A stretch of 64,000 nucleotides of DNA from the NCBI GenBank assembly GCA_947649125.1, contig CANSQL010000005.1, positions 8,401 to 72,400 on the forward strand, written 5' to 3'. Under the pieces are notes generated by a model. It saw only the letters and a program-made list of their open reading frames with translations. It did not search any database and was not told the origin of the DNA. Positions 3,974 to 29,152 of this stretch are shown piece after piece (position 1 is the stretch's first letter; each line of letters begins with the position of its first letter). The position numbers and the translations under genes were made by a program. This DNA is from an uncultured Erysipelotrichaceae bacterium (GTDB lineage Bacteria; Bacillota_I; Bacilli_A; Erysipelotrichales; Erysipelotrichaceae).

Positions 3974-5014
3974 TTAAAAACATTCTGTATCTAAGAAAAT
4001 ATGCTTACGATGATAGCTTAAAAACAGCCTGCGCTCCTCATTCAATAAATAAGCGGGTAAACGCTGTTTTGTGTGAAGCTGATAGGCAGAAGCATTGTCC
4101 TTTACATGCTTTTCCAATTGTTTACTGATCAACAGTGTACCGTCATTATGAAAGCTGATATAGCCTTGATCGAATAAGAAGTCATGATTGCGGCACAGCA
4201 GCAGTCCGTTATGATAATCAATCGCTTCATAAATATGCGCACACTCACGAAACGGCTTGATATGGGACGCAATTAACAGCTGTGCCAGATCAAGCTGACA
4301 TAAAACGCAGGCGTGATTGCATTCATGAAACAGCGTATCCTTGAAAAATATCTGCAGACTCTTCACTGCCTCACGCTCTGTCGGTACACCGCTTGTTTCA
4401 ATGATTCGATGAATGATATCCCACTTCGGATAGGCAATCGGCGAAAGCTGCGTATTCTTGTAGGACAGTACTCCCTTATGGTCTTTTAAGACACTCTTTG
4501 TATAAAAAGCACATAGGCAGTTAGAAATCAAAAAGTCACTTCCCGTGCTATATTCACCAATTATTGTAAAAATATTATTGCGATATTCATTTTCTATGAT
4601 ATAATAATCGTGGTCTGATAACAGGAGTGAGGTCTGTGTCAGCAGGGAAAGGCTGACCGCATCCAAGCGCTCCTCAAGCCAAGTCTTTGCGCATTTTTGC
4701 GCAGCACATTGACGAAGCGTACTGCGATATGCTTCCACACGATACAGGCATTCAAAGAACGCTAATGCCTCTGTCTGACTGTCATCCTCTGCCTTCGCAA
4801 ACACTGTGGCACAGGCGGACAGGTCGATACCTCTCCTGGTATCCTTTAAAAATTCGCAGCTGCGCAAATAGGAGCACACCTGTGCCGTCAAGCGCTGTTC
4901 ATGATCATCCTGCAGTTCATGAAGCAAGACCGCTTCCAATGCCGCATAGGAAATCGCATGTGCTTCCACGATATCTAAAATCGAAAGGCAATTTTTAAAA
5001 AAAGCTTTATTCAA
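3974..5014 (-). CDS. HNH_2-type nuclease with an uncharacterised ~230-aa N-terminal domain
   Basis: C-terminal motif ...CVLC...ASHIKPF...NGLLLCRNHDFLFDQGYISF matches the HNH (PF13391-like) pattern. TTG start is preceded by GAGGGA. Confidence 0.7.
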   Translation of the reverse strand: MNKAFFKNCLSILDIVEAHAISYAALEAVLLHELQDDHEQRLTAQVCSYLRSCEFLKDTRRGIDLSACATVFAKAEDDSQTEALAFFECLYRVEAYRSTLRQCAAQKCAKTWLEERLDAVSLSLLTQTSLLLSDHDYYIIENEYRNNIFTIIGEYSTGSDFLISNCLCAFYTKSVLKDHKGVLSYKNTQLSPIAYPKWDIIHRIIETSGVPTEREAVKSLQIFFKDTLFHECNHACVLCQLDLAQLLIASHIKPFRECAHIYEAIDYHNGLLLCRNHDFLFDQGYISFHNDGTLLISKQLEKHVKDNASAYQLHTKQRLPAYLLNEERRLFLSYHRKHIFLDTECF

Positions 5015-5180: not shown

Positions 5181-5867
5181 ATGAAAGGACCCGGCATTAA
5201 AGATTACTTAAAGGTAATAGAAGACAAAAAAGCAGATGCCCTGAAACAGGGACAAAGCGAAATCGAAATCAATTCAAAGGAGCTGCACGCAGAGGTGTCG
5301 CCGAATCATGCGACAATGCCGACCTGCTGTCAGGCAATCTATAAGCTGATGCTTGAGGGGGACGAAATTCTGCAGAGACCGAAGGGATCGACAGGCTTCG
5401 GCAGTCATTTGACCGTTCGTTTCCAATTACAGAACATGGAGAACAGAGCACAGCTTTACCCGGGCAAGAAAAGAGGCCGCCCGGCAAAGAGCGATGAGGA
5501 AAAGCTGGCTGCCCGCAAGGCAAAAATGAAGCGCAATACCGAGGATTTAACTAATCTGATCAAGGCATGGCTGAATGAGCACGGCTGGAGCTATGAGGAA
5601 AACAAGGGTATTTTAGAGGCCTTCAACGGTGAGAAAAAATGGGTGATCAACGTACAGGGCATCAAGCGCGGCAGAAAGCAGACATTACCGGTAAAGCTAG
5701 GTGAAGTGATAAAGCATATCGATGATTTAAATACGCATTACAGTATGGCTTTTAATGATTCACTTACTTATCGTCGTCAATGGAATGAAATTCCGACAAT
5801 GGTAAAGGAACGCTTAAATATGAGCGTAATCTTGGCTGATAAAAAAGGTAATATTACCGAACTGTAA
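5181..5867 (+). CDS. Hypothetical protein with a basic AT-hook-like segment (GKKRGRPAKS)
   Basis: Strong RBS (AAGGAGG) and its own terminator. It is divergent from the HNH gene. No family recognised. Confidence 0.6.
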   Translation: MKGPGIKDYLKVIEDKKADALKQGQSEIEINSKELHAEVSPNHATMPTCCQAIYKLMLEGDEILQRPKGSTGFGSHLTVRFQLQNMENRAQLYPGKKRGRPAKSDEEKLAARKAKMKRNTEDLTNLIKAWLNEHGWSYEENKGILEAFNGEKKWVINVQGIKRGRKQTLPVKLGEVIKHIDDLNTHYSMAFNDSLTYRRQWNEIPTMVKERLNMSVILADKKGNITEL

Positions 5868-5873
5868 TCAAAG

Positions 5874-5908
5874 AGCTTCATGGGAGGAGACCTTATGAAG
5901 CTTTTTTT
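5874..5908 (+). terminator. Rho-independent terminator
   Basis: AGCTTCAT-N13-ATGAAGCT followed by T7. Confidence 0.75.
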
Positions 5909-6433
5909 ATGTCTTCCCGACCGATAATTTTTAATCATATTTATTTCGTTTTCTTCCCTTGATTCATTCGCTGCGGAAAGAGTCAAACTGAAAGAGGTAG
6001 TAATAAATAAAATGATTATATCCGATACTGTACACTTCTTTTTTACGACATGGAAAAGAGAAGCTTTTTTTAGCGGTACTTGTGCGCGAAAAATGATTTT
6101 ACGGTATTTTTCAATCGAAGCATACAAGTGATTTTATTTATGAAATCATCTGTTGAATAGCTTGAAATGTAAAAATAATTAATGAAAATATACTTAAAAT
6201 AAAAACACGCTGTTCGATGCAGCATTCTTGTTTATTTGTATTACCGTAAGTTACGTGAAGGGAATAAAATGATGAAAGTTTATAGTATCATTTCAATAAT
6301 TGAAAATATTGTAAAAAAATAAAGATTTATTTTATATGTGCGTTTTCATATGTGCACATTGTTAAAAATATTTCAATTTTATTATTGACATAAAAATACA
6401 ATTATACTATGCTAAATAAAAGGAAGTGATTTT

Positions 6434-7495
6434 ATGAGCGATATGATATTAGAGGAATTAGTTGAATTGGTAAAGCAGGGCGATGAAAATGCCTTTCAAG
6501 AGCTTTATCAGCGCTTTTATAAAAAAATCTATTATGCAGCTCTGAAAATCACTAAAAATCAAGCAGATGCGAAGGATATCTCACAGGAGACCTTTCTGCA
6601 GGTTCATAAATCCATCAATTCATTGAATGACAACGGCTTGTTTATTCAATGGCTCAATCGTATCGTTGCCAGTAAGGCAAGCGATCTGTTCAGAAAAAAT
6701 AAAACAACGACACTTCCTGAGGATCATATGCTGTTTCAAACGCAGCAGGAGGAGCGTAAGTCTTTTATTCCCGAAGCGAATCTGCATTTTAAATCCGATC
6801 ATGAGCTGTTGGATTATTTTATGGAAAAAATCGATGAGCGTTATCGCACTGTTTTAGTCATGCGTTATTTTTCGGAATTAAGCATTGCGGAAATTGCGGA
6901 GGCTCTGCATATTCCGGAGGGTACGGTAAAGACACGTTTAAAGCGAGGTCGTGAGGTTTTGAGGGATTTGATTCATGATTATGAAAAACAGGAGGGTGTT
7001 GAACTGAACTTCAGAAGCAATGAGCTCGGTGCTGCTTTCAGTGCGTATTTCTTATACGATTATGCCCAAACGCATATATCGACACCCTTATTTACAGGCT
7101 TTGCCTTACCTAAGCCGCATGCTCATTCATGGAGCTTTTCGGGTATTTCCGTATGTGCAGCCTTAACTGTGACTATTGTCTTTTGTGCCGGCAGAATCCT
7201 GCAGCTCAGCGGTATTGCGAATGATGCGACAACCGCCTATGAAACAGAGGAAACACGGTATTTCGGGCCTGTTTCCTATGCGGGAAGTGATTTTACCAAT
7301 CCTGAGGATGCGTATTATGAACTTACTTTATTTGCGCATTGTAAAAAGGAAATGAGTGAAAAAGACAAGGATGAATTATTAAGCATCAAACCGTTATATG
7401 AGGAATTGAAGCGTTATCAAGGTGTTTATTGGCGCATGCTTGTGTATCGTGAATGGAATCGTGAATTTGAAGCAATGATTGAGGAAAAGTATTGA
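6434..7495 (+). CDS. Sigma-70/ECF-type RNA polymerase sigma factor with a C-terminal extension containing one predicted transmembrane helix
   Basis: Region 2 (DAKDISQETFLQVHK) and region 4 HTH (LSIAEIAEALHIPEGTVKTRLKRGREVL) lie in the first ~185 aa. A hydrophobic stretch FSGISVCAALTVTIVFCAG follows, then a ~95-aa tail. Confidence 0.85.
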   Translation: MSDMILEELVELVKQGDENAFQELYQRFYKKIYYAALKITKNQADAKDISQETFLQVHKSINSLNDNGLFIQWLNRIVASKASDLFRKNKTTTLPEDHMLFQTQQEERKSFIPEANLHFKSDHELLDYFMEKIDERYRTVLVMRYFSELSIAEIAEALHIPEGTVKTRLKRGREVLRDLIHDYEKQEGVELNFRSNELGAAFSAYFLYDYAQTHISTPLFTGFALPKPHAHSWSFSGISVCAALTVTIVFCAGRILQLSGIANDATTAYETEETRYFGPVSYAGSDFTNPEDAYYELTLFAHCKKEMSEKDKDELLSIKPLYEELKRYQGVYWRMLVYREWNREFEAMIEEKY

Positions 7496-7673
7496 AGCAT
7501 TCAGTGCTTTTTATTTGATATCTGAGGAGTAGTTTAGAATATCACATGTATATAAAATGTTATAAAAGTATTTGATTTATCAGTGAAATTGTCTTTGTTA
7601 TAGGTAAATATAAGCTTATTTTAAGCCCTTTTTTATTCACTTAAAAAAATATTTCAATAAATTTGAATTTTTT

Positions 7674-7701
7674 TGAAACCGATTTGATACTTAATCCGTC
7701 T
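7674..7701 (+). promoter_or_regulatory. Candidate ECF-type promoter (TGAAAC-N17-CGTCT)
   Basis: The motif was read directly. It lies 133 nt upstream of the ATG at 7834 and resembles the ECF -35 GAAC / -10 CGTC architecture. Confidence 0.35.
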
Positions 7702-7833
7702 GATTGATACAAAGGGGATAGTATGCTTTTTCAAAGCTGTTTATAAACAGAAATTCATTCAAAATGATTTCAGCGTAATAACGCTTGATTTAACTGTTTG
7801 CTTTACGGACAAGAGCAGGAAGGAGAAAAGAGT

Positions 7834-10800
7834 ATGAAAAGATTGATTGTGGTACTTACAATGTTGATGATTACTATAACTGTTGGATATGCGTACTGCA
7901 ACAGCTATTTAAGGGCGGCAAGCTCTACGTATACTGCCGGCGGGAATATCACCGGACGAATCGGTCCTGCAGGTAACGGCGGAGCATTCTCAAAAGGTGA
8001 TCGCTTAATTACTGATATATCGCATAACGGTACGAATATTGATTGGTTACTGTTAAATAATTCACTGCTGTGGCGAAATAATGAGAGCGGTCACTACAGT
8101 GTTCCCGCTGAAGTGGCTAATACCTCAAACGGCATGTATGCAATTTCATTTGACAGTATTATGAATATCAAGTTTCGTGATAGTTTTAAATCTAATATAT
8201 ATGAAAATGCAATATTAAGTACGAGTAATTTACCGCCGATTTATAAAGCTATCAATACTGCTATTGATGCTGACAGTGTCCAAAAAAGATATTTGGTAGT
8301 TCATACTTTAGATATGTCTATGGATAGATATGATAAAGATTATGTAAATAAAGATTTAGCAACAATGTCATTAACAGATCCTTTAGTTATAAAATATGTT
8401 TTTCCTCAGTCATATATTGAATTCGACGATGAAATATATAATTTTGTAGGCAGGTATGGTCATTTGGAAAACCAAGATCGTGTTTATAAAAATCAAACAC
8501 CGTATATTTCGGGAAACGGGAATGTAGTCGGCAGCGACGGAAGCAACGGAAGATATGTGGACGGAAACGGTGCTTTTTCTCCTTTGGCTAACTCGGGAAC
8601 AGTCAATTCATGGATTTCGGAATTTCCGCTGCGTATCGCAATTTTGTTTAATCTCAGTGATGTTGTCTTCGCTGTTTCAGATCCGAGCGGTTCATCGACA
8701 AGTCAGCTTATGCAAGTGTCTAATATTGATAATGAAAAATTATCTTGTACAGGCGGTTGTAATTATACCTCGCTTTATGATAAAGCAGCTTTATATCAGC
8801 CGATGAAAATAAGGCTGTTGGATAATGTGAATCTTAACGTGGATTTTGATGCATTAACAGATCTTAACGGAACAGCGGCGTCTTCTGATATTAATTCAAT
8901 TACGAAAGGAAAGAAGCTAAAATTATTTTGGAGTAATAAATTAAGCTATACCGGTGATGATTATGTGTCGGTATTAATTGAAAAACAAAATACATCAGGC
9001 TCATATGACTTTGTTTATTATAAGAATATAAGTAAGGACCCTAACGGTTCATTTGAAATTGACACTTCTAATTTTGAGATCGGAAGTTATCGTATCTCTT
9101 TGGTAGATGAAACAGTGAGTGCCGGTAATGCAGCTACTTATTCATCACAATTAAAGTCAAAGAATATCAATGTTGTTGAATATCAGCCGCATACAGTAAG
9201 TTTTACGAAGAAAACAGGGCTAGAGCACGGAAAAAATGTAAATGCGGGAGACAGTATCGGTGATTTGAAATTAAGTGATACTGTTACTACCGTTTTTCCG
9301 ATTACTTATACTTTAGAAGCAAACGGTGATAATTCTTATCAAAATTTTGAAATAGACGGACTTGATTCCAATCAAGCATCAAACGCAAAAAGTTTATCTG
9401 TGAAAATAAAAGCGAATGCACCCGATTTAACAGCTGAAGGCTTAAAGGCGGGAGTTTATAAATTTTGTGTAGTAACTCACGATGCAGACGGAATGCCGGC
9501 AAACCCGGTAACTAATAAAACTAAGATTTGTACAAGTGTTTCAATAGATAAAACAAACCTGACTGCTGCCTTTGATGATCCGAATCAAACAAAGAAATCA
9601 ATAGCGGATGCTTCAACTGCTTGGAATGAAACAGCGACAGCGAACCCTAATACAGGAGCTAAAGTAACTTACAGTGTGAGTGGTGGGGACACGTATTTGA
9701 TTGATATCGATGCGGATACAGGAGCGATTACTTATAAGGGAAACGGAGCTTTCGGTAAAGTTAAGATTAAGGCAACCGCTGATGATGATCCTGACAGTGG
9801 AAATGATAATTATAATTCAGCTTTCACAGAAAAGGAAATTATCATTTATAAACAGGTGGACGGAAGTGTAACACCGCATGCGAATTCATCAGACAGTATT
9901 ATTCCTGCCTTTACCGCAACAGATACCAATGTAAAGACAAACGGAATCATCGGAACTATTCAAGGTACGACAGGAACACCCGATAATATCGGTGGTTCCT
10001 CAACGATTACTTATAAGTACGGAATAGAGACAGGCGGAGATTCGAGCTTATTCACTGTCGATCCAAATACAGGAGTCATTAAGACTACTGGAAACTTAGG
10101 AGTACAAAGCTATCATATCACGGTAACAGTATCTGATAAATGGAGTACCAAACAAATCCCATTGACAATTAATGTCGGAGTGGCGAATGCAGAGGATTTA
10201 AGATTCTATGAAACAAGTGCTGCCGTCAACATGATAAGTCAAAAGAGTGTGAAGGTAACAGATACGAATGTAAGTGTCTATGCGACGGTCAAGGGAAGTA
10301 CAAACAACAATCCTGTCACTTATAAAATCAAGGATGGTTCAACAAATATCATCACGATCAATCCAAACAGCGGAGTAGTCACAATCAACGGAGTAGGAAC
10401 AGTAACGATCATAGCGGAAAAGGATGGCGGAGTCGGACAGGCAAAGGCAGTAGCTGAGTTGACCTTTACAGTTACAGCGGGAGCACAAAACTTCATTTAT
10501 ACAGATAATGCGGGAAATGAGCTTCCGAAAAGCGGCAGTAATTATTCAGCGAAAACAGACACGTATGCGCCCAATAAAACCATCCAATTATATACGGCAG
10601 GAAATCCAAACGGTTCCACAGTAACGTATCAGTTAAAGGTAGGCAGCCCTAGCGATGTGATATCGGTAGATGCGAATGGATTAGTAACGATATTAAATGC
10701 TTCCTTGAATAATCAAATGGGCAGGGTCATCGTACAGGCAACCAGCCATGATCCTACAGGAAACTATGCAGATAAGACGATTGAACTGCCGATCAATATA

Positions 10801-13275
10801 GAAAAAGGTACAAGAACAATCAGCTTCAAAGAGAATCCGATTTACGCAGTAAGCGGAAACGGCAGTGTTACTCCTGTCATAGAGGTAGACGGTGTCATTG
10901 ATACCGATGGTGATGTATTGATCGAGGTAGATCACAACGAGGACAGCTCTATCGCATGGACCGGTGATAATAAAACAATCGAATATGACTACAGTGAACC
11001 AAATCCAAAGGATATCAAGATACATGCGACCAAGCCGATGAATCGAAACTATAAAGCGGCAGAGGCAGATGGAGTCCTTCATATCATGGGACCTAATGAG
11101 AATGTACTGGCAATCACAAGTCCGGGAAAGATCACTTACGGCGATCACTTCACAATTCGAAGCAGTCAATATGACGCGGACAGTACAAACGTACAGTATA
11201 AATTTGAGATAGATGATACCACGTATATCTCAAGCCCAACCGTAAACGGAAACAGTGCCGCGTTTGATGCGAAACAATTCAGCGGAAGCATTAAAACAAC
11301 GATCACAGTAACGAGAACGGCAGACGGAGAATCACCGTTAAGTAAAAAGGTACAGGTATCGGTACTGCCGAAGCCGATCGAAATCGTCATTGATGATAAA
11401 GAAAAGTTAAAGGGAGAACAGAATCCAAGCTTGACCTATCGTGATTTCAAAAACAAGTTAGTTTCATGGAACGGCGTACAGGATGTGATACAGGAAAATG
11501 ATATCAAGCTGAGCACAACGGCAAAGACAGACAGTAATGCGGGAAGCTATCCGATTAAGGGAGATACGAACACATTAAATAAGACCTATCCAAACTACAG
11601 CTTTACATTCAAAGAGGGAACCTTAAAAATAACTGAGGAAAATATTGAGGATGATTGGTATCATTTAGAGCTTGATGATGGGAACAACACTGCCTATACA
11701 GGTGATTGGACAAATCAAAACGTCAATATCATCAGCGACCATAACGAGTATATCAATTTATCGTTAGATGGTAGTGCATGGAATCCAAGTCAGGTGACAA
11801 TCACAAGCGAAGGCGAGACCAACCAAAGCTTTTGGATGAAAAAGGACAGCGGGGCTATCACCAAAGAGAAACAGGAAACAATCAGAATCGATAAGACAGC
11901 ACCAAGTGTAAAAAACATCAAAGCCAAGGATACAAACAACAAGCTGCAGGATATTATCAATAAAATCAGCGGCGGAATCTTCTTTAAGCCGGGAACGTCA
12001 TTTGAGGTAACGACAAGTGATGCGAAGGATGACCTAAAGGTCAGCGGTACCAAGGAAATTGCGTATAAGGTCTACAAGCTGGAATCCCAAGCGAGAGCTG
12101 TAGAGGAATTAATCAAAGAAGGCAATTTAACTGTCACAAAAGAAAAGGCAAGCATCACAATCAGTGAGCTCACCGGAAGCTACAAGGTATGCGTAACACC
12201 TACGGATAACGCAGGAAATACAAATACGGAAAGCTGTCATGAGGTAGAGCTAAAGAAAATCGATGTTGATGTAGACGGAGACGGTAAGCCTGATTTCAAT
12301 GATCCTGACGGAGACGGATGTCCTGACTTAAACATCAAGTGGAAGGACCCAAATGATGAAACCAAATGGATCGTAATCAACGGAGATCGAAACAATGATA
12401 AGATACCTGATTTGAATATCGACAGTGACGGGGACGGCACCCCTGACTTGAATATCGATACAGACGGAGACGGCAAGCCCGATCTTAACCTTGTGATTCT
12501 AAAGAAAGGTGATTGGAAGCCAACGAAGTGCGTCAAGGCAGACCCAGATAACGGAATCTTAGAGAAGTATTGTACAGGAACAAGTGTCAAAGCAGTAATT
12601 AATATTGATACTGACGGCGATGGAATTCCGAATATTAATATTGATAATAAAGGAGATTTCAAGCCACATATTAATATCTCAAAGGACGGGATCAATCCAA
12701 TCATCAATATTGCGATAATTCATGAATGGAAGCCTGAGTTGAACAAAGCACTTAACAGTTTCCAATTTGATACAATGGCGATCGATGAGAAAAAGAATGT
12801 CTTATTAAATATCGATACCGACGGAGACGGCAGACCGGATGTCAATATTGATTTAGACAATGACGGTAAGCCCGATATTAACATAGATACCGATTTTGAT
12901 TGGATACCCGATATCAATATCGACAGTACAGGTGACGGACAGCCTGATACAAATGTAGATACCGATAATGACGGAATCGCAGATGAAAATATTGTTGAAA
13001 TCAAGGAATGGAAGCCGAATAAAAATGTTGACGGCGATTTACCTTATGATACGATGGATTTTAATGAACAAGATCCATCAGATGATACAACAACCGATCC
13101 GATTCCGCCGAAAAACGATACAAGTGTCAAGGGAGTTTATAATCCGGCAACAAGTATGGGCGGTGCAATGACCGGAGATTCAACGAATGTGATGTTATAT
13201 ATCACTTCTATAGCATTCGCTGTCGGACTGATTGCTTATCTAATATACAAAAAACAGAAAGATACATTTCAATAA
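7834..13275 (+). CDS. Giant cell-surface protein 1 (signal peptide, cadherin/Ig-like repeats, MBG-like domain, TSP3-like Asp-rich Ca-binding repeats, C-terminal TM anchor)
   Basis: The start is taken at ATG 7834 (RBS AGGAAGGAG, signal-like MKRLIVVLTMLMITITVGYA). Cadherin-like motifs (IDADTGAITY, VDPNTGVIKT) are present, with about 11 DxDxDGxPD units. The tail is GAMTGDSTN, a hydrophobic stretch, then KKQK. Confidence 0.9.
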   Translation: MKRLIVVLTMLMITITVGYAYCNSYLRAASSTYTAGGNITGRIGPAGNGGAFSKGDRLITDISHNGTNIDWLLLNNSLLWRNNESGHYSVPAEVANTSNGMYAISFDSIMNIKFRDSFKSNIYENAILSTSNLPPIYKAINTAIDADSVQKRYLVVHTLDMSMDRYDKDYVNKDLATMSLTDPLVIKYVFPQSYIEFDDEIYNFVGRYGHLENQDRVYKNQTPYISGNGNVVGSDGSNGRYVDGNGAFSPLANSGTVNSWISEFPLRIAILFNLSDVVFAVSDPSGSSTSQLMQVSNIDNEKLSCTGGCNYTSLYDKAALYQPMKIRLLDNVNLNVDFDALTDLNGTAASSDINSITKGKKLKLFWSNKLSYTGDDYVSVLIEKQNTSGSYDFVYYKNISKDPNGSFEIDTSNFEIGSYRISLVDETVSAGNAATYSSQLKSKNINVVEYQPHTVSFTKKTGLEHGKNVNAGDSIGDLKLSDTVTTVFPITYTLEANGDNSYQNFEIDGLDSNQASNAKSLSVKIKANAPDLTAEGLKAGVYKFCVVTHDADGMPANPVTNKTKICTSVSIDKTNLTAAFDDPNQTKKSIADASTAWNETATANPNTGAKVTYSVSGGDTYLIDIDADTGAITYKGNGAFGKVKIKATADDDPDSGNDNYNSAFTEKEIIIYKQVDGSVTPHANSSDSIIPAFTATDTNVKTNGIIGTIQGTTGTPDNIGGSSTITYKYGIETGGDSSLFTVDPNTGVIKTTGNLGVQSYHITVTVSDKWSTKQIPLTINVGVANAEDLRFYETSAAVNMISQKSVKVTDTNVSVYATVKGSTNNNPVTYKIKDGSTNIITINPNSGVVTINGVGTVTIIAEKDGGVGQAKAVAELTFTVTAGAQNFIYTDNAGNELPKSGSNYSAKTDTYAPNKTIQLYTAGNPNGSTVTYQLKVGSPSDVISVDANGLVTILNASLNNQMGRVIVQATSHDPTGNYADKTIELPINIEKGTRTISFKENPIYAVSGNGSVTPVIEVDGVIDTDGDVLIEVDHNEDSSIAWTGDNKTIEYDYSEPNPKDIKIHATKPMNRNYKAAEADGVLHIMGPNENVLAITSPGKITYGDHFTIRSSQYDADSTNVQYKFEIDDTTYISSPTVNGNSAAFDAKQFSGSIKTTITVTRTADGESPLSKKVQVSVLPKPIEIVIDDKEKLKGEQNPSLTYRDFKNKLVSWNGVQDVIQENDIKLSTTAKTDSNAGSYPIKGDTNTLNKTYPNYSFTFKEGTLKITEENIEDDWYHLELDDGNNTAYTGDWTNQNVNIISDHNEYINLSLDGSAWNPSQVTITSEGETNQSFWMKKDSGAITKEKQETIRIDKTAPSVKNIKAKDTNNKLQDIINKISGGIFFKPGTSFEVTTSDAKDDLKVSGTKEIAYKVYKLESQARAVEELIKEGNLTVTKEKASITISELTGSYKVCVTPTDNAGNTNTESCHEVELKKIDVDVDGDGKPDFNDPDGDGCPDLNIKWKDPNDETKWIVINGDRNNDKIPDLNIDSDGDGTPDLNIDTDGDGKPDLNLVILKKGDWKPTKCVKADPDNGILEKYCTGTSVKAVINIDTDGDGIPNINIDNKGDFKPHINISKDGINPIINIAIIHEWKPELNKALNSFQFDTMAIDEKKNVLLNIDTDGDGRPDVNIDLDNDGKPDINIDTDFDWIPDINIDSTGDGQPDTNVDTDNDGIADENIVEIKEWKPNKNVDGDLPYDTMDFNEQDPSDDTTTDPIPPKNDTSVKGVYNPATSMGGAMTGDSTNVMLYITSIAFAVGLIAYLIYKKQKDTFQ

Positions 13276-13303: not shown

Positions 13304-13340
13304 AAACAGGTGTTTTTAAGGTAAAAATGCCTGTTTTTCT
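13304..13340 (+). terminator. Strong rho-independent terminator between the two giant genes
   Basis: AAACAGGTGTTTTTA-agg-TAAAAATGCCTGTTT (about 15 bp of stem including G-U pairs), then TTCT. It contains the ATG at 13327 that the ORF track uses as a start. Confidence 0.8.
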
Positions 13341-13422
13341 ATTCAGAAACATATATTTCAATAACATTTTTCTATCTCTATTAAAGTCTACATTTGTATA
13401 CATTAGAGAAAGGAGAAGTGCT

Positions 13423-16400
13423 ATGAAAAAGTTAATTGTAGTATTGATGATGGTGGTAATAGCAGTTTCTGTAGGTCATGCTTACTACAACTATAGCTTA
13501 AGTGCGGCTGATTCCACCTATAATGCCGGCGGAAATATCACCGGACGTATCAATAAAATGCCTTCCGGCTTAACTTCAACAACGAGCAGCCTGCAAAAGG
13601 GCGATAAAATTTTGATGAATGTCGATAATGCGTATGCTTCAGATAAGCTTGGTTGGCAGCTGTTGAGCTATCAGACCTATACGGATTATGGCTGTACAAC
13701 GAAAACAACGTGTACCGGAAAACCGCAGATATCCGCATGGCTCGCAATGAGTGATAAACCGATTGCTAAAACAAATGCTGTTGATTCTATTAATGTATTT
13801 GAAAAAGGAAGCAGAGGACCTTGGTACACGTTAGATTTCACAAAAACAAAAATGTATCCTTCCTTAACCAATCTTAACAATAAATTGAGTGCATCAGCAG
13901 TTGACAATCAGCTGATTGTATATCGAAATTTATATTATATTCATGAATTTTATAAAAAAGCAACAGAAAAAAACACCCCTCATTATTTGGATCAAGTGGA
14001 CAAGGCAACATTTTCTACCCCGGATTTATTGGGAAAAGCTGCTTTCCTTACATCATATTATGAAAACTACGGTCGAGGAGAACTGGGGCTTACCACCTAT
14101 CCTGTTCAACCGATTGACTTGACCTTTTCCGATGATTATTTTTATAGTAACGCATATGCCGATACGCCTATTTCCAGCTCTAACAGCTGTGATTATTATA
14201 TGTATATTGCGACTAAAAACACGGGAACGACCGGTAATGCGCGTAACTTAAGCAAAAACTCTGTTAATGTTCAATATGTGATTCGTCCTTCTATTTATCT
14301 GAATGTTGAAAACACGGTATTTGCGGTATCAAGAGGAACATCGGGAAGTGTCGGAAAGGTTCATTTGACAAAGCTTACAAACGGATATACATCGTTATAT
14401 GCGGAAACTACAGAGGATAAAACAAACGGAAAGCATGTGGCGATGAAGCTTCGTATGTACAACAGTGCTTTAACTGCACAGCTGAATGATATTAAGCATT
14501 CTAACGGTACTTCAATCAGTAAAATAACGAAAGATCAAACTGTGAAGCTGACTGCTGCTGCGAATGCAGGAAATGACGGTGCGGGCGGTGTTTATACGCT
14601 GTCTGTGATTCTGTTGGATGAAAATAATAATTTTGCCTATTATAAGCCGTTGGAAAGCGCAAAGGGAAGCGGAACATATGAATTTGATCTGAGCGGTATT
14701 GCGGCAGGAAAATATAAGGTTGCGGTAGTAAATGAAGCTTATAATGAAGCGTTGACATCTCCTGCGGATTCCAGCTTGATCAGTAATACGATGCCCTTAG
14801 AAATTGTGGAAACGGTAAGCGTTAATGTTACTCCTAAAACAGGCTTAGAGGTAGGAAAGAATGTCAATCAAAATGATGTTGCGGCAACCTATACGACAAG
14901 TGGCGGTGTTTCACCGATTACGGCGACTTTAGTCAGTGATACAAGTGTCAGCGGACATGAAAATGATTATCAGTTGTTCTCACTGTCTAACGGAAATGTA
15001 ATCGTAAAGGGACCTGGCGGTTTAGCGGCCGGTGATTATTATTTCAAAATCAATGCGATAGACAACTACGGCGATCCGATAAACGGGGTGAATTCAGCCA
15101 CTGTCCATGTCGTAGTAGGGAAAACGAATTTAACGGTTGCCTTCGATGATGCGAATATAACGAAAAAGTCAATCGATGAAGCGAAAACATCGTGGAATGA
15201 AACTGCGACAGCGAATCCAAGTGCGGGTACTAAGGTGACGTACAGTGTGAGCGGCGGAGATATTTCCTTGATAACGATCGATCCCGATACCGGAGCGATT
15301 ACCTATGCAGGGAATAATGCGTACGGTAAGGTGAAAATAAAGGCAACGGCTGATGACGATCCAAGCAGCGGCAAGGATAACTACAATCCGGCCTTCAGCG
15401 AAAAGGAAATCATTATCTATCGAGGAGTAGACGGCAGTGTGACACCGGACAGTAATTCATCTAGTACTCAAACACCGACCTTTACTACCTCTGATTCAAA
15501 TATCAAGGTAAACGGAATTATCGGTACAATCAAAGGAAGTGCAGGAACACCGGATACGATCGGCGGTAATACAACGACGTATACGTACGGTCTAAAGACA
15601 GGAGCGGGTGATGCCGGCTTCTTCAGCGTAGATGTAAATACGGGGGTTATTAAGACAACAGCGAATCTTGGAGTAAAAACCTATTCCATAACAGTAACGG
15701 TATCGGATAAATGGAGTACAAAGGAAATCCCTGTAACAATCAATGTCGGGATGTCAGCGGCAGAAAATTTGAGGTTTTATGAAAACAGTACTTCAAGTAC
15801 GATCATCAACTCGAAAAGCGCAAAGGTGACAGATACGAATGTTGTGGTATATGCGACAGTTAAGGGAAGTACGAATATGAATCCTGTCACATATAAGATC
15901 AAGGATGGTTCAACCAATGTCATCGAGGTCAATTCAAGCAGCGGAGCGGTTACGATTCACGGAGTCGGAACGGTAACGATTGTCGCGGAGAAACAAGGAG
16001 CGAGTGGACAGGCAGATGCGCGTACTGAGCTGACCTTTACGGTAACGGCAGGGGCACAGAATTTCATCTATACGGATAACGCAGGAAATGAGCTTCCGAA
16101 AAGCGGTAATAACTATTCAGCGAAAACAGATACGTATGCGCCCAATAAAACAATACAGTTATATACGGCAGGAAATCCTAACGGTTCAACGGTAACGTAT
16201 CAGTTAAAGGCAGGAAGTCCTACCGATGTGATATCGGTAGATGCGAATGGATTAGTAACGATATTAAATGCTTCCTTGAATAATCAAATGGGCAGGGTCA
16301 TCGTACAGGCAACCAGCCATGATCCTACAGGAAACTATGCAGATAAGACGATTGAACTGCCGATCAATATAGAAAAAGGTACAAGAACAATCAGCTTCAA

Positions 16401-18846
16401 AGAGAATCCGATTTACGCAGTAAGCGGAAACGGCAGTGTTACTCCTGTCATAGAGGTAGACGGTGTCATTGATACCGATGGTGATGTATTGATCGAGGTA
16501 GATCACAACGAGGACAGCTCTATCGCATGGACCGGTGATAATAAAACAATCGAATATGACTACAGTGAACCAAATCCAAAGGATATCAAGATACATGCGA
16601 CCAAGCCGATGAATCGAAACTATAAAGCGGCAGAGGCAGACGGTGTGCTTCATATCATGGGACCTGATGAAAATGTACTGGCAATCACAAGTCCGGGTAA
16701 AATCACATACGGCGATCACTTCACGATCAGAAGCAGTCAATATGATGCGGACAGTACGAACGTACAGTATAAATTTGAGGTGGATGATACAACGTACATT
16801 TCAAATCCAACCGTAAACGGAAACAGTGCCGCGTTTGATGCAAAACAATTCAGCGGAAGCAATAAAACAACAATCACAGTAACGAGAACGGCAGACGGAG
16901 AATCACCGTTAAGTAAAAAGGTACAGGTATCGGTACTGCCGAAGCCGATCGAAATCGTCATTGATGATAAAGAAAAGTTAAAGGGAGAACAGAATCCAAG
17001 CTTGACCTATCGTGATTTCAAAAACAAGTTAGTTTCATGGAACGGCGTACAGGATGTGATACAGGAAAATGATATCAAGCTGAGTACAACCGCAAAAACA
17101 AACAGTAATGCAGGAAGCTATCCGATCAAGGGAGATGCCAACACATTAAACAAGACCTATCCAAACTACAGCTTTAGCTTTAAGCAAGGAACACTGGTAA
17201 TCAAAGAGGAAGCCATTGAGGATGATTGGTATCACTTAGAGCTTGATGACGGAAACAATACTGCCTATACAGGAGAGTGGACAAATCAAAACGTCAATAT
17301 CATCAGCGACCATAACGAGTATATCAATTTATCGTTAGATGGTAGTGCATGGAATCCAAGTCAGGTGACAATCACAAGCGAAGGCGAGACCAACCAAAGC
17401 TTTTGGATGAAAAAGGACAGCGGGGCTATCACCAAAGAGAAACAGGAAACAATCAGAATCGATAAGACAGCACCAAGTGTAAAAAACATCAAAGCCAAGG
17501 ATACAAACAACAAGCTGCAGGATATTATCAATAAAATCAGCGGCGGAATCTTCTTTAAGCCGGGAACGTCATTTGAGGTAACGACAAGTGATGCGAAGGA
17601 TGACCTAAAGGTCAGCGGTACAAAGGAAATCGCTTATAAGGTATATAAAACAGAGAAGCAATCAAGAGCCGGAGATGAGCTGATTAAGGATGGAACCTTA
17701 ACTGTCACAAAAGAAAAGGCAAGCATCACAATCAGTGAGTTGACCGGAAGCTACAAGGTATGCGTAACACCGACTGACAATGCGGGAAATACAAATACGG
17801 AGAGCTGTCATGAGGTAGAGCTAAAGAAAATCGATGTTGATGTAGACGGCGACGGTAAGCCTGATTTCAATGATCCGGATGGAGATGGCTGTCCTGACTT
17901 AAACATTAAGTGGAAAGACCCTGAAAATCCTGATAAATGGATCGTGGTAAACGGAGATCGAAATTATGACGGACTTCCTGATTTAAACATTGACAGTGAC
18001 GGCGACGGTAAGCCTGACTTGAATGTTGATACAGACCGAGATGGCAAGCCCGATCTTAACCTAGTAATTCTAAAGAAAGATGAATGGATGCCAACGAAGT
18101 GTGTCAAGGCAGACCCTGACAACGGAATCTTAGAGGAATATTGTACAGGTACAAACGTAAAGCCTGTAATCAATGTAGATACCGACAATGACGGAATTCC
18201 GAATATCAACATTGACAATAAGGGAGATTTCAAGCCACATATCAATATCTCAAAGGACGGTAAAACGCCGATTATCAATATTGCGATAATTCATGAATGG
18301 AAGCCAGAATTAAACAAAACAACAAACGGCTTCAGCTTTGATACAATGGCAATTGATGAGAAAAAGGATGTCTTATTAAATATAGATACCGACGGAGACG
18401 GCAGACCGGATGTCAATATTGATTTAGACAATGACGGTAAGCCCGATATTAACATAGATACCGATTTTGATTGGATACCCGATATCAATATCGACAGTAC
18501 AGGTGACGGACAGCCTGATACAAATGTAGATACCGATAATGACGGAATCGCAGATGAAAATATTGTTGAAATCAAGGAATGGAAGCCGAATAAAAATGTT
18601 GACGGCGATTTACCTTATGATACGATGGATTTTAATGAACAAGATCCATCAGATGATACAACAACCGATCCGATTCCGCCGAAAAACGATACAAGTGTCA
18701 AGGGAGTTTATAATCCGGCAACAAGTATGGGCGGTGCAATGACCGGAGATTCAACGAATGTGATGTTATATATCACTTCTATAGCATTCGCTGTCGGACT
18801 GATTGCTTATCTAATATACAAAAAACAGAAAGATACATTTCAATAA
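13423..18846 (+). CDS. Giant cell-surface protein 2 (tandem paralog of 7834..13275)
   Basis: ATG 13423 has RBS AAAGGAGAAG and signal-like MKKLIVVLMMVVIAVSVGHA. The C-terminal ~1230 aa are collinear with protein 1 at a constant +5571 nt offset. Confidence 0.9.
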   Translation: MKKLIVVLMMVVIAVSVGHAYYNYSLSAADSTYNAGGNITGRINKMPSGLTSTTSSLQKGDKILMNVDNAYASDKLGWQLLSYQTYTDYGCTTKTTCTGKPQISAWLAMSDKPIAKTNAVDSINVFEKGSRGPWYTLDFTKTKMYPSLTNLNNKLSASAVDNQLIVYRNLYYIHEFYKKATEKNTPHYLDQVDKATFSTPDLLGKAAFLTSYYENYGRGELGLTTYPVQPIDLTFSDDYFYSNAYADTPISSSNSCDYYMYIATKNTGTTGNARNLSKNSVNVQYVIRPSIYLNVENTVFAVSRGTSGSVGKVHLTKLTNGYTSLYAETTEDKTNGKHVAMKLRMYNSALTAQLNDIKHSNGTSISKITKDQTVKLTAAANAGNDGAGGVYTLSVILLDENNNFAYYKPLESAKGSGTYEFDLSGIAAGKYKVAVVNEAYNEALTSPADSSLISNTMPLEIVETVSVNVTPKTGLEVGKNVNQNDVAATYTTSGGVSPITATLVSDTSVSGHENDYQLFSLSNGNVIVKGPGGLAAGDYYFKINAIDNYGDPINGVNSATVHVVVGKTNLTVAFDDANITKKSIDEAKTSWNETATANPSAGTKVTYSVSGGDISLITIDPDTGAITYAGNNAYGKVKIKATADDDPSSGKDNYNPAFSEKEIIIYRGVDGSVTPDSNSSSTQTPTFTTSDSNIKVNGIIGTIKGSAGTPDTIGGNTTTYTYGLKTGAGDAGFFSVDVNTGVIKTTANLGVKTYSITVTVSDKWSTKEIPVTINVGMSAAENLRFYENSTSSTIINSKSAKVTDTNVVVYATVKGSTNMNPVTYKIKDGSTNVIEVNSSSGAVTIHGVGTVTIVAEKQGASGQADARTELTFTVTAGAQNFIYTDNAGNELPKSGNNYSAKTDTYAPNKTIQLYTAGNPNGSTVTYQLKAGSPTDVISVDANGLVTILNASLNNQMGRVIVQATSHDPTGNYADKTIELPINIEKGTRTISFKENPIYAVSGNGSVTPVIEVDGVIDTDGDVLIEVDHNEDSSIAWTGDNKTIEYDYSEPNPKDIKIHATKPMNRNYKAAEADGVLHIMGPDENVLAITSPGKITYGDHFTIRSSQYDADSTNVQYKFEVDDTTYISNPTVNGNSAAFDAKQFSGSNKTTITVTRTADGESPLSKKVQVSVLPKPIEIVIDDKEKLKGEQNPSLTYRDFKNKLVSWNGVQDVIQENDIKLSTTAKTNSNAGSYPIKGDANTLNKTYPNYSFSFKQGTLVIKEEAIEDDWYHLELDDGNNTAYTGEWTNQNVNIISDHNEYINLSLDGSAWNPSQVTITSEGETNQSFWMKKDSGAITKEKQETIRIDKTAPSVKNIKAKDTNNKLQDIINKISGGIFFKPGTSFEVTTSDAKDDLKVSGTKEIAYKVYKTEKQSRAGDELIKDGTLTVTKEKASITISELTGSYKVCVTPTDNAGNTNTESCHEVELKKIDVDVDGDGKPDFNDPDGDGCPDLNIKWKDPENPDKWIVVNGDRNYDGLPDLNIDSDGDGKPDLNVDTDRDGKPDLNLVILKKDEWMPTKCVKADPDNGILEEYCTGTNVKPVINVDTDNDGIPNINIDNKGDFKPHINISKDGKTPIINIAIIHEWKPELNKTTNGFSFDTMAIDEKKDVLLNIDTDGDGRPDVNIDLDNDGKPDINIDTDFDWIPDINIDSTGDGQPDTNVDTDNDGIADENIVEIKEWKPNKNVDGDLPYDTMDFNEQDPSDDTTTDPIPPKNDTSVKGVYNPATSMGGAMTGDSTNVMLYITSIAFAVGLIAYLIYKKQKDTFQ

Positions 18847-19620: not shown

Positions 19621-19947
19621 ATGGATAATACGGAGATCAGGACAATAATTAAAAATGGGTTAAAACAAAATCATATGACACAGGCAGAGCTGGCCTCAAT
19701 GCTTGGGATAGAACGAGCAACCGTAAATCGTTGGTGTGTAGGTCGTGCGATTCCCGAAGCAGATACCTTTCTGCAGGTTTGTATCCTTCTGCATATTCGC
19801 ATCGATTCCTATTTATATGACGGTGATGATCCGCTTCAGACACAGATAATGAGAATGGTAACTCATTTAGATGAAAGAAAAAGGGCATCCTTACTTCGTA
19901 TGCTGAATCAGCTGATGGAAATGGTAAATGAAACAATATCCGTTTAA
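19621..19947 (+). CDS. XRE-family helix-turn-helix transcriptional regulator
   Basis: HTH motif MTQAELASMLGIERATVNRWCVGRAIP. RBS GAGGTG. Confidence 0.8.
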   Translation: MDNTEIRTIIKNGLKQNHMTQAELASMLGIERATVNRWCVGRAIPEADTFLQVCILLHIRIDSYLYDGDDPLQTQIMRMVTHLDERKRASLLRMLNQLMEMVNETISV

Positions 19948-19994: not shown

Positions 19995-20381
19995 TTAAAG
20001 CATATCAAGCAGCTCCCACAGAAAGCTTAAAATGATTTGCTTATGCTCACTGTCTAACGCATTTAGTTTTTTCAGCAGCAATATCTCTTCCTCACTTACT
20101 TGATGATTGATAAAATAACGAAGCTGTGAATATGGATCGGGACGATGTAAAAGCTTTAAAAAGAAATTATCAATGCTTCTGTTCGCAAGCTCCATGATTT
20201 TATAGAAATCAATTAACGATGGTCTTGTTTTGGCTCCGCTCGTATATTTATATAAAACCGAATACGGAATATCAGCCAATTCCGCCATCCTTTTAAAGCT
20301 GATTCCCATCTCCTCTTTCAGTTGATATAAAAATGTAGAAAAATTGAAATTTTCCAGTATGCGGATATCATCGTTATTCAT
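19995..20381 (-). CDS. HTH (XRE-like) DNA-binding protein
   Basis: ISFKRMAELADIPYSVLYKYTSG resembles an HTH_3 motif. RBS AGGAGA. Confidence 0.6.
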   Translation of the reverse strand: MNNDDIRILENFNFSTFLYQLKEEMGISFKRMAELADIPYSVLYKYTSGAKTRPSLIDFYKIMELANRSIDNFFLKLLHRPDPYSQLRYFINHQVSEEEILLLKKLNALDSEHKQIILSFLWELLDML

Positions 20382-20609: not shown

Positions 20610-21644
20610 TTACATATTTACTTGTTTAACGATCAAGGATGCACTGACGCCGCTGTTCAGATTTACATCTGATTCCTGCAGCGAGCTGATGCTTAAATGA
20701 AGCTGATCCTGTGCGTTTAAGGTGACAAGTGCCTGAGCGGTAAATACATTGTTTTCATTTCCGCTTACATTTTTAGAAGCGATCAATGACGGAATATTAG
20801 CGTTCTGATTACGAACCGATACGGATAACGGTTCTGCGCCGTTGGTGTTGATATCCACAACGAAGCTTACCTCATAGGTTCCGCTTTGCGTAACGGTCAA
20901 GATATTGTTGCTGAGCAGGACATTTAACAGATCCATAGAATTCTCTAAAGGAATTGTTACACTGCCGCCTTCAGGTATCTCTAAGGCTAAGGCACCGTCA
21001 TGATAAGCACCGCCGTAGGACTGTAAGCCCTGTGCGGGACCTGCCGGCCCTTGAGGGCCTGTCGCACCTTGCGGCCCCTGCGGGCCTGTTGCGCCTGCAG
21101 CACCTGTGGCACCGGGAACACCTTGCGGACCCTGAGCACCCTGAGGGCCAACCGGACCTGCCGGACCGGTTGCTCCCGCAGCACCGTCAGCACCTGTCGC
21201 TCCTGTTGCGCCTTGCGGACCCTGAGGACCTTGCGGACCTGTCGCACCTGCCGGCCCCTGCGGACCTGTTGCGCCTGCAGCACCGTCAGCACCTGTCGCA
21301 CCTGTTGCGCCTGTCGGACCTTGTGCACCTGTCGCGCCTTGCGGACCCATAACGCCCTGCGGACCTGTTACACCCTGCGGACCGCGTGCACCCGTAATTC
21401 CTTGCGGCCCTTGAATGCCTTGGATACCGCGCGGACCCTGCGGACCTGTGGCACCCTTAGGACCCCGCGGACCGGTAGGGCCTACCTTACATTCACAAGG
21501 ACTCGGACAAGGGCACGGTCTCTGACAGTCGCAGGGACAAGCGCTATCCTCATCACACATATCCATACAGGAATTTAAATCACAACCGCAGTCATCAAAA
21601 TCATTAAAGCACTCGTCGTTGTAATAGCAGTTATTTCGATACAT
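20610..21644 (-). CDS. Collagen-like triple-helix repeat protein with a Cys-rich N-terminus and a BclA/C1q-like C-terminal domain
   Basis: ATG 21644 has RBS AAAGGAGAAG. There are 17 Cys in the first ~50 aa, a long uninterrupted run of G-X-Y triplets ([10 protein letters not shown]...GPQGPAGPA), then a ~140-aa globular tail. Confidence 0.9.
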
Positions 21645-21692
21645 GATAACTTCTCCTTTCACTGAGTGAAACACATTGCTTTGTTTCAACAC

Positions 21693-28922: not shown

Positions 28923-29152
28923 GTGTCTTGTGTGCTTAATGTGGATACAGTATATCTTAATATATCTTAATGTACACAATTATAAACATGAGGGATTATT
29001 GATAAAATCGATGAAAAACGCAAGAAAAAACAGACAATTATTGCCTGTTTCGATATGTCTATAAAGGTGTACTTTTGTAGACAGTGAAAAGGGGTGTTAA
29101 ATGCAGAGAAAGGTTAGAGCTTAAGTTTTATAAGATAGGAAAGGAGAAAAAA

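Follow-up and report, generated by a model that had tools for sequence, protein, structure and literature searches.

The stretch analysed here is 64,000 nucleotides (nt) of a contig from an uncultured Erysipelotrichaceae bacterium (CANSQL010000005.1, positions 8,401 to 72,400, assembly GCA_947649125.1; hereafter the window), and our main subject is a gene at 6434..7495 (+) in which an extracytoplasmic function (ECF) sigma factor is fused, in one reading frame, to a predicted transmembrane (TM) helix and a C-terminal tail. Directly behind it lie two genes for giant surface proteins, for which the name adhesin is a functional guess from their MBG_2 and cadherin-like domain content. We rate at somewhat better than an even chance the reading that the fusion protein is a membrane-tethered, one-component ECF sigma factor that would be produced constitutively, serve the neighbouring giant gene or genes and be activated by proteolytic release.

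The gene was called as an open reading frame (ORF) with an ATG start, and its translation is 353 amino acids (aa) long. The first 185 residues (6434..6988, +) are the sigma core, in which Pfam places Sigma70_r2 at aa 24-90 (E 3e-11), Sigma70_r4_2 at aa 124-174 (E 2e-16) and Sigma70_ECF at aa 8-177; Sigma70 region 3 had no Pfam match in the 353-aa protein. The core scored 97 bits against the NCBIfam model of the sigma70-ECF superfamily (TIGR02937, cut-off 42.9). The best NCBIfam equivalog was SigW (NF007223 / TIGR02948), below the respective cut-offs (122 bits vs 209; 108 bits vs 243), and the nearest solved structure in the PDB was also SigW, that of Bacillus subtilis (5wuq; E 5e-37, positions 3-181). 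The core is a member of the ECF (group 4) sigma-70 family, and SigW is its closest characterised sigma. Four further parts follow in the same frame: a linker expected to be cytoplasmic (aa 186-234; 6989..7135, +), delimited by the family alignment and AlphaFold2; the predicted single TM helix (aa 235-253; 7136..7192, +), based on Kyte-Doolittle hydrophobicity, charge bias and AlphaFold2; a variable juxtamembrane spacer that is predicted to be disordered from its predicted local distance difference test (pLDDT) values and the family alignment (aa 254-276; 7193..7261, +); and a conserved C-terminal tail domain, predicted to be extracytoplasmic and defined by a tail-only AlphaFold2 model and the family alignment (aa 277-353; 7262..7492, +).

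The sequence features that a first-pass annotation had reported from the letters of the window are all present at the coordinates it gave. It had described a 353-aa sigma factor with regions 2 and 4 in residues ~1-185, and the Pfam domains fall at those positions; it had reported a hydrophobic helix in the same frame, which is FSGISVCAALTVTIVFCAG at aa 235-253 (nt 7136-7192), and a C-terminal tail after the helix, which is ~100 aa long. It had also stated that no separate anti-sigma gene follows the sigma gene, and indeed the next gene, with its ATG at 7834, encodes the first giant protein of 1813 aa. Its description of the protein as a sigma/anti-sigma fusion needs to be divided. The single membrane-anchored polypeptide stands, and the label "anti-sigma" is not supported, as no anti-sigma domain or zinc-binding anti-sigma (ZAS) motif is detectable in the 50-aa linker. 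Past aa 186, Pfam gave no match to FecR, zf-HC2 or any other domain at E <= 0.01, and inspection of linker residues 186-234 revealed no ZAS motif HxxxCxxC. A class I anti-sigma domain comprises ~80-90 aa and four helices, compared with the ~50 aa between sigma region 4 and the TM helix, one low-confidence helix and the lack of a profile match found here. The linker carries the motif LNF(R/K)(S/T) at aa 191-195, which is conserved in the family alignment and has a nearly invariant F193, and a short amphipathic helix at aa 199-212, for which AlphaFold2 confidence is low.

The fusion is conserved. A homologue search of 5.8 billion clustered proteins returned ~65 full-length homologues of 323-389 aa (27-95% identity; coverage at least 86%, and at least 94% for nearly all), and in their alignment conservation extends to the sigma core, the motif of the linker, a hydrophobic segment in the corresponding position and the motif of the tail. 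When a profile of the tail only was searched against 1.84 billion representative proteins, 153 matched, nearly all of them 315-390 aa long with the tail at the extreme C-terminus. A sigma domain was present in 134 of the 144 new tail-bearing cluster representatives, the other ten being fragments of 44-154 aa. The tail occurs only in the sigma-TM-tail architecture. Since it is confined to that architecture and the reading frame is conserved, a sequencing frameshift is excluded; the alternative of a split sigma gene and anti-sigma gene is ruled out by the fused frame in both the full-length homologues and the representatives. The one-component fusion proposed in the first-pass annotation, with the same architecture down to 27% identity, is therefore upheld.

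We also scanned contigs of species-representative genomes with the full-length alignment. The hits were mostly generic ECF sigmas, because the search patterns were derived from the sigma core, and the family members among them were those of three loci only (L001-L003), all in metagenome-assembled genomes of Erysipelotrichales or Erysipelotrichaceae. The only public name carried by family proteins is [quoted passage not shown]. Taxon names, which are known for only some of the loci and clusters (three genome-contig titles and four NCBI protein clusters), are all Erysipelotrichales/Erysipelotrichaceae with the sole exception of a 139-aa fragment labelled Lachnospiraceae. Mouse-gut records underlie loci L001 and L083, and it is for these only that a gut origin is explicit.

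In the window protein the best 19-residue Kyte-Doolittle window reached 2.09 at the helix, as compared to a maximum of 1.1 within the sigma domain. Across the family (n=181) the mean helix score was 1.83, and 144 members reached the classical threshold of 1.6. The mean number of Lys and Arg residues was 2.2 in the 15 positions that precede the helix and 1.0 following it, with net charges of +1.5 and -0.9, respectively. The conserved hydrophobicity and the excess of Lys and Arg before the helix over those after it support a single predicted membrane span that is oriented N-in/C-out, with the sigma domain in the cytoplasm and the tail outside. A membrane helix is thus predicted and conserved where one had been claimed, and it shows a positive-inside bias. 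Small residues are frequent in the helix (46% Ala+Gly+Ser+Thr), and 167 of the 181 members have at least one Gly in it. AlphaFold2, run with the full-length alignment, modelled a helix at residues 230-264, had pLDDT <50 at aa 262-271 and was confident about the tail. The predicted template modelling score (pTM) of this full-length model was 0.29, so the relative placement of its domains is unreliable. The juxtamembrane spacer differs in both sequence and length among family members.

The tail is characterized by the motif DAYYxLxxWAHCxxEM...PLYxELK...GxY...W...FE. A tail-only AlphaFold2 model built with 30 homologues consists of a beta-hairpin followed by five helices (pLDDT 88, pTM 0.75). The tail had no match in Pfam, none in the PDB by sequence profile search (best E 0.71) and none in the PDB when its model was submitted to Foldseek (best E 2.3, TM-score <=0.38), in keeping with the earlier statement that it could be assigned to no described sensor domain. 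The single conserved Cys, that of the AHC motif, is found in no more than 85 of the 181 members, making a universal thiol or metal mechanism unlikely.

The second line of evidence is the gene neighbourhood, which we examined at loci L001-L003, L081, L083 (two tandem modules, a and b), L085, L086 and L088-L094, at several of which the giant gene is broken off by the contig end. A very large gene on the same strand follows the sigma gene in every one of 15-16 independent loci, although the upstream neighbours of the sigma gene are unrelated from locus to locus. The downstream giants are related to the first giant protein of the window, with identities of 59% (L001), 57% (L083a), 46% (L090), 43% (L083b) and 42% (L091), followed by 37% (L085), 36% (L088), 30% (L086) and 27% (L081), and finally 26% (L094), 24% (L093) and 22% (L089). 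L081, from a related species, is syntenic with the window locus, CamS-GatCAB lying upstream in both. At every locus examined the sigma gene precedes a homologous giant gene. As a control, the sister sigma P0073, which has a membrane helix and a BspA-type LRR_5 ectodomain, is followed by a gene for a major facilitator superfamily transporter and by no giant gene. Since this LRR_5 sister is not beside a giant gene, the giant pairing is specific to the tail family; judging from the sequences compared, the membrane-anchor fusion itself is recurrent in this part of the ECF tree.

Several of the related loci deserve mention in their own right. Proteins P0065-P0079 (~530-565 aa; locus L097) are sister ECF sigmas with a hydrophobic helix and BspA-type LRR_5, and are not beside giant genes. 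Another sigma-TM fusion (L005, 9910-11262) carries a Ser/Thr-rich region and an unknown domain, and is likewise not beside a giant gene. A near relative at L004 consists of a canonical sigma and a separate ZAS anti-sigma carrying HLSECEKC. From these sequences, sigma-TM fusions lacking an anti-sigma domain seem to be recurrent in Clostridia and Erysipelotrichia. The two tandem sigma-to-giant modules of L083 (1-16316; GCA_910576345.1) have the -10 elements ACTCTA and CGTCAG, and the first of the two giant genes is in three ORFs (1476, 827 and 333 aa), possibly as a pseudogene or through assembly breaks.

The third line of evidence is the promoters. The first-pass annotation had pointed to TGAAAC-N17-CGTCT between the sigma gene and the first giant gene as an ECF-type promoter, and we found it at 7674..7701 (+), 179 nt past the sigma stop codon and 133 nt before the ATG at 7834. 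The shape of this candidate (AAC-type -35, CGT-type -10) fits an ECF promoter and is conserved in related loci, and it is from conservation across those loci only that the motif derives its significance. We compared 16 sigma-to-giant spacers from independent contigs, whose sigmas are 27-59% identical to the window protein, with first-order Markov simulations (300 runs). The pattern AAC-N17-CG, whose shape was set a priori, occurred on the coding strand of 7 of the 16 spacers (simulation mean 0.67, maximum 3), on the opposite strand of none, and in none of 15 regions upstream of sigma genes. GAAC-N17-nnnC occurred in 13 of the 16, a count that was reached in 0/300 simulations (mean 0.60) and represents ~20-fold enrichment; its occurrences elsewhere were 0-1 of 16 on the opposite strand and 1 of 15 upstream of sigma genes. 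Among 15 sites aligned on GAAC, position 25 (the fourth -10 position) is C in 14, position 23 is G in nine and position 22 is C in eight, and the consensus is GAAC(t)-N17-CGTC. Distant loci also share sequence just past the promoter, namely CGTCtGATTGATAC in the window and CGTCaGATTGATAC in L083b, with CGACTGGTTTGTGCAA common to L001 and L093 just downstream of the promoter.

The sigma gene is preceded by a promoter of another kind. A putative housekeeping (sigma-A/sigma-70 type) promoter, TTGACA-N17-TATGCT, lies at 6385..6413 (+), 20 nt before the start codon, and is the best sigma-70-type match in 6100-7900 (10/12 positions). The pattern TTGAC[AT]-N16-18-TAnnnT was found 18-34 nt upstream of the sigma start codon in 8 of 15 related loci, the window included, and in none of the 16 sigma-to-giant spacers; the sigma-70 scan gave no promoter of this type in 7496-7833. 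The two promoter types are thus reciprocally distributed, which makes the sigma gene look constitutively expressed and the giant gene dependent on an ECF sigma. We favour ECF control of the giant gene because the motif is strand-specific and spacer-specific and because the spacer has no sigma-70-type promoter. Together with the invariant gene order and the homology of the giants, the ECF motif in the spacer argues for the proposal, made at first pass, that the sigma controls the adjacent giant genes. Autoregulation of the sigma gene was considered and rejected, given the upstream counts of 0/15 for AAC-N17-CG and 1/15 for the looser pattern and the sigma-A-type promoter there instead. A still looser pattern, GAAAC-N16-18-nnTC, was not enriched in the window (28 vs 25.5 expected) and is therefore unusable to define a wider regulon. 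No riboswitch or known RNA was matched in Rfam at E <= 1 over 5800-8000.

For the second giant gene, the motif listing gave a weak candidate ECF-like promoter, GAAAC-N18-TTTCTA, at 13346..13373 (+). Its -10 resembles CTTCTA and ACTCTA of L089 and L083a, respectively, and no sigma-70-type promoter was found before this gene. Because the spacing is one base longer the candidate is tentative, and we suggest only that the second giant gene may have an ECF-type promoter of its own.

Additional sequence features were observed around these promoters. The 10-mer ATTTCAATAA occurs six times in the window compared to 0.91 expected (6290, 7651, 13266, 13355 and 18837 on the + strand; 44997 on the - strand), and five of the six copies cluster at the sigma-giant locus. 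Three are intergenic: one precedes the sigma gene, one lies immediately 5' of the -35 element and one is before the second giant gene. The other two of the cluster coincide with the ...TFQ-stop codons that end the paralogous giant genes. In L001, AAATTTCAATAAATTT is found at the matching place upstream of the -35 element. The 10-mer may be an UP-element-like tract or the site of another regulator. An imperfect palindrome, TTTCAATAAATTT / AATTTTTTTGAAA, spans 7652-7678 (arms 85% complementary, 1 nt apart) and overlaps the -35 TGAAAC; it could be an operator through which a dimeric regulator, either repressor or activator, acts on the ECF-type promoter. A perfect 14-nt palindrome, CTGTTTATAAACAG, is at 7737-7750 in the predicted 5' leader of the first giant gene, and a second small hairpin, AGCGT-aata-ACGCT, was seen by eye near 7783-7797. 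At L081 an IS1595-family element, a transposase gene with inverted repeats (11060-12476), has inserted between the sigma and giant genes, directly upstream of GAAC.

The mechanism that we consider to have a somewhat better than even chance would proceed as follows. The housekeeping-type promoter would transcribe the sigma gene constitutively, without autoregulation, and the protein would insert in the membrane such that its sigma domain faces the cytoplasm and its tail domain the outside. Tethering, possibly aided by the LNFRS motif and the amphipathic linker, would hold the sigma domain off RNA polymerase. Site-1 cleavage would then be triggered from outside the cytoplasm, by an event at either the tail or the disordered spacer, after which a site-2-type intramembrane protease would cut the Gly/Ala/Ser-rich helix and free the sigma domain for adhesin transcription, its target being the GAAC-N17-CGTC promoter directly downstream that is expected to drive the neighbouring giant gene or genes. 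We believe that activation is probably by proteolytic release because of the precedents of IutY and ECF48/52/53 (see below), the small helix-destabilising residues in the helix and the disordered spacer before the tail.

Several points weigh against this mechanism. The linker has no anti-sigma domain recognisable by Pfam, AlphaFold2 does not pack the linker confidently against the sigma domains (pTM 0.29), and no site-1 or site-2 protease gene is located within the 64-kb window. The amphipathic linker helix scores close to the TM helix in hydrophobicity in 7 of 65 members, which places some doubt on the topology and leaves a small chance that two helices are involved. As to the promoter, TGAAAC-N17-CGTC occurs once in the 64 kb of the window compared to an expectation of 0.29, and at least one match is present in 26% of shuffles; in the window alone its occurrence is not significant and is compatible with chance. 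Furthermore, the -10 element is degenerate between loci (CGTC, CGAC, TGTC, CTTC, TCTC), L094 is without GAAC, and the -10 elements of L081 and L092 are poor.

The main rival of proteolytic release is tethered action, or binding of a partner by the tail, without proteolysis. The sigma would be active while tethered, recruiting RNA polymerase to the adhesin promoter at the membrane in the manner of ToxR/CadC. In this way the 1800-aa proteins would have their transcription, translation and secretion coupled. The tail would modulate the sigma through a conformational change or by binding a partner, for instance the nascent adhesin. We regard this as unlikely, although some points favour it. There would be no need of an anti-sigma domain that has to be destroyed, the linker has a steady length (59-79 residues between GTVK and the helix), the sigma appears strictly dedicated to one adjacent secreted giant protein, and a conserved motif past the signal peptide of the giants could be the ligand. 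To our knowledge, however, there is no precedent for a sigma factor that works in the holoenzyme while anchored in the membrane. The composition of the helix is like that of intramembrane-protease substrates. In addition, the characterised fused sigma IutY requires proteolytic release, and release has also been proposed for SCO4117 with partial evidence from truncation (PMC8999054).

More doubtful than tethered action taken alone is a broader proposal, that the family is an unclassified gut-Erysipelotrichaceae set of one-gene transmembrane sigma switches, with every copy wired to a single giant adhesin gene. The ectodomain, having a new fold, would detect either a host cue or the adhesin of the same module, through its presence on the surface, its secretion or the mechanical load on it. 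The sigma might even act while tethered and physically couple transcription of an 1800-aa secreted protein to its export site, and several orthogonal modules per genome would result in choose-one control of surface antigens.

There is only a slim chance, in our estimation, that the tail is cytoplasmic, with the helices forming a membrane hairpin or neither of them spanning, and that it is an intramolecular regulator contacting sigma regions 2 and 4, like the C-terminal extensions of ECF41/ECF42. Such an arrangement would be consistent with the linker helices of the seven members noted above, which have Kyte-Doolittle values of 1.4-1.6, and C-terminal extensions that touch the sigma core are the best-known class (PMC7826278; PMC8999054). 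In the window protein, however, the linker helix is ~14 residues long and poorly hydrophobic, with conserved acidic residues; the distribution of charges agrees with one N-in/C-out span, and in AlphaFold2 the tail folds on its own, with no confident packing on the sigma domain in the full-length model (pTM 0.29). Least probable of all is that the sigma and giant genes merely co-travel in a mobile or recombination-prone cassette, the motif not being the promoter of this sigma and another factor controlling the adhesins: the lack of significance in the window alone and the presence in the AT-rich spacers of other conserved words and palindromes to which a different regulator could bind (among them ATTTCAATAA and the palindrome spanning 7652-7678) would allow it, but the motif is shaped as one would expect for a SigW-like ECF sigma, is strand- and position-specific and conserved at ~27-60% protein identity in spacers without a sigma-70-type promoter, and the gene order is constant although the flanking genes differ.

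The two giant genes, for which the first-pass annotation had proposed an 11-kb pair, are real tandem paralogues. Giant surface protein 1 (1813 aa) is encoded at 7834..13275 (+), and giant surface protein 2 (~1807 aa) at 13423..18846 (+), counted from an ATG that is preceded by a ribosome-binding site and was placed with BLASTP and the sequence of the start region. Between them, at 13304..13336 (+), is a terminator-like hairpin with a 15-pair stem followed by a T-run. Both proteins have a signal peptide, MBG_2 and weak cadherin-like matches in Pfam. They are 68% identical overall by BLASTP, near-identical over the C-terminal two-thirds and divergent in the N-terminal ~600 residues, a pattern that suggests gene conversion or recombination with diversification of an exposed tip. 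The C-terminus of giant protein 1, ...GGAMTGDSTNVMLYITSIAFAVGLIAYLIYKKQKDTFQ, has a hydrophobic segment and a basic tail, KKQK, and resembles a cell-wall sorting signal without LPXTG; no LPXTG was found at the C-terminus, and there was no NCBIfam match. The region 12400-13275 and the matching end of gene 2 encode many calcium-binding-like DxDGDGxPDxNID repeats, followed by GGAMTGD, the hydrophobic segment and KKQK. Just past the signal peptide, at residues ~30-50 (7920-7990 in the window), is the motif (A/V)GG.(I/V)TGR(I/V)N.AP.(G/N)(L/I), common to giants of the window, L001, L083b, L085 and L091. It could be a processing or recognition site, and conceivably the ligand of the sigma tail.

Other genes of the window include one at 20610-21692 (-) for a collagen-triple-helix protein with a BclA-like C-terminal domain (of the exosporium or hair-like surface protein type), which adjoins two small HTH_3 regulators at 19621-19947 (+) and 19995-20381 (-). 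A 2245-aa secreted protein of glycoside hydrolase family 31, with F5/8 type C, fn3, cohesin and FIVAR domains, is encoded at 29084-35821 (+), and no sigma gene precedes this giant. Between gatB and the sigma gene there are an HNH_2 endonuclease-domain protein (3974-5014, -) and a 228-aa ORF with no Pfam match (5181-5867, +). At this position L081 has an AAA_14/DUF4143 gene instead; in the window, genes of that type are at 42309-43583 and 49059-50258.

Erysipelotrichaceae are prominent gut commensals, whose attachment and recognition by the immune system are likely to depend in part on their giant surface proteins. The compact module that seems to govern each adhesin, a fused sigma gene plus one promoter, would offer a testable handle on adhesin timing, and could serve synthetic biology as an orthogonal, self-contained switch. 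For the ECF field, the gains would be a Gram-positive family of membrane-tethered sigmas without a recognisable anti-sigma domain, a small ectodomain without a structural relative in the PDB, and a regulon that appears unusually narrow and non-autoregulated.

Among known systems, SigW-RsiW of B. subtilis has the closest characterised core and a promoter of the same type, the SigW consensus being TGAAAC-N16-CGTA. SigW is released by the successive proteolytic action of PrsW, RasP and Clp. It is autoregulated, has a separate rsiW and serves a large stress regulon, whereas the window sigma has a fused membrane part, no autoregulation and an apparent regulon of one locus. Pro-sigma-K of B. subtilis is also membrane-associated and is a direct substrate of the site-2-type protease SpoIVFB; unlike the window protein, it is a group 3 sporulation sigma that is tethered by a short N-terminal pro-sequence and has no ectodomain. 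The SigI-RsgI systems of cellulolytic Clostridia comprise several paralogous modules of sigma and membrane sensor per genome, each with an extracellular sensing domain and tied to large extracellular proteins. An overview of sigma-I is available (PMC10575876). The resemblance lies in the repetition of modules, as in the two tandem sigma-to-giant modules of L083. In contrast to the window fusion, SigI does not belong to the ECF sigmas, RsgI is a protein of its own and the sensing domains are carbohydrate-binding modules.

The closest precedents in architecture are ECF sigmas that are themselves fused. IutY of Pseudomonas putida (ECF243) is a sigma/anti-sigma hybrid of cell-surface signalling that is activated by regulated proteolysis through Prc and then RseP, and whose truncation renders it constitutive (PMC8999054; PMC5411451). 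Like IutY, the window protein is one polypeptide with an N-terminal ECF sigma, one predicted membrane span and a C-terminal part expected to be extracytoplasmic. IutY, however, has a FecR-like anti-sigma part and works with an outer-membrane TonB-dependent receptor in a Gram-negative cell, whereas the window protein is without FecR, has an unrelated 77-aa tail, belongs to a Gram-positive lineage and has a giant surface-protein gene as its apparent target. SCO4117 (ECF52) and members of ECF48 and ECF53, all from Actinobacteria, are ECF sigmas with one or more C-terminal TM helices and an extracytoplasmic sensor, for which proteolytic release has been proposed (PMC5826349; PMC8999054). They share with the window protein the C-terminal fusion of an ECF sigma to a TM and extracytoplasmic region, but carry a ZAS module and a carbohydrate-binding domain in extensions that can be as long as 400 aa, whereas the window protein has no HxxxCxxC, a 50-aa linker and a small tail without matches.

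The main text of the 2021 ECF reclassification presents no Firmicutes group with a single-helix C-terminal extension (PMC7826278), and in the collection of papers searched none linked Erysipelotrichaceae, an ECF sigma and an adhesin. ECF sigmas with fused TM extensions are already known, as IutY and ECF52 demonstrate. What appears novel here, from the sequence comparisons, is the lineage, the lack of a ZAS or FecR module, a tail that is unmatched in Pfam and the PDB, the lack of autoregulation and an apparent one-locus regulon of giant proteins. The evidence from comparison is unusually clean, but the mechanism would be a conventional one unless the sigma is active while tethered or its ectodomain senses the adhesin.

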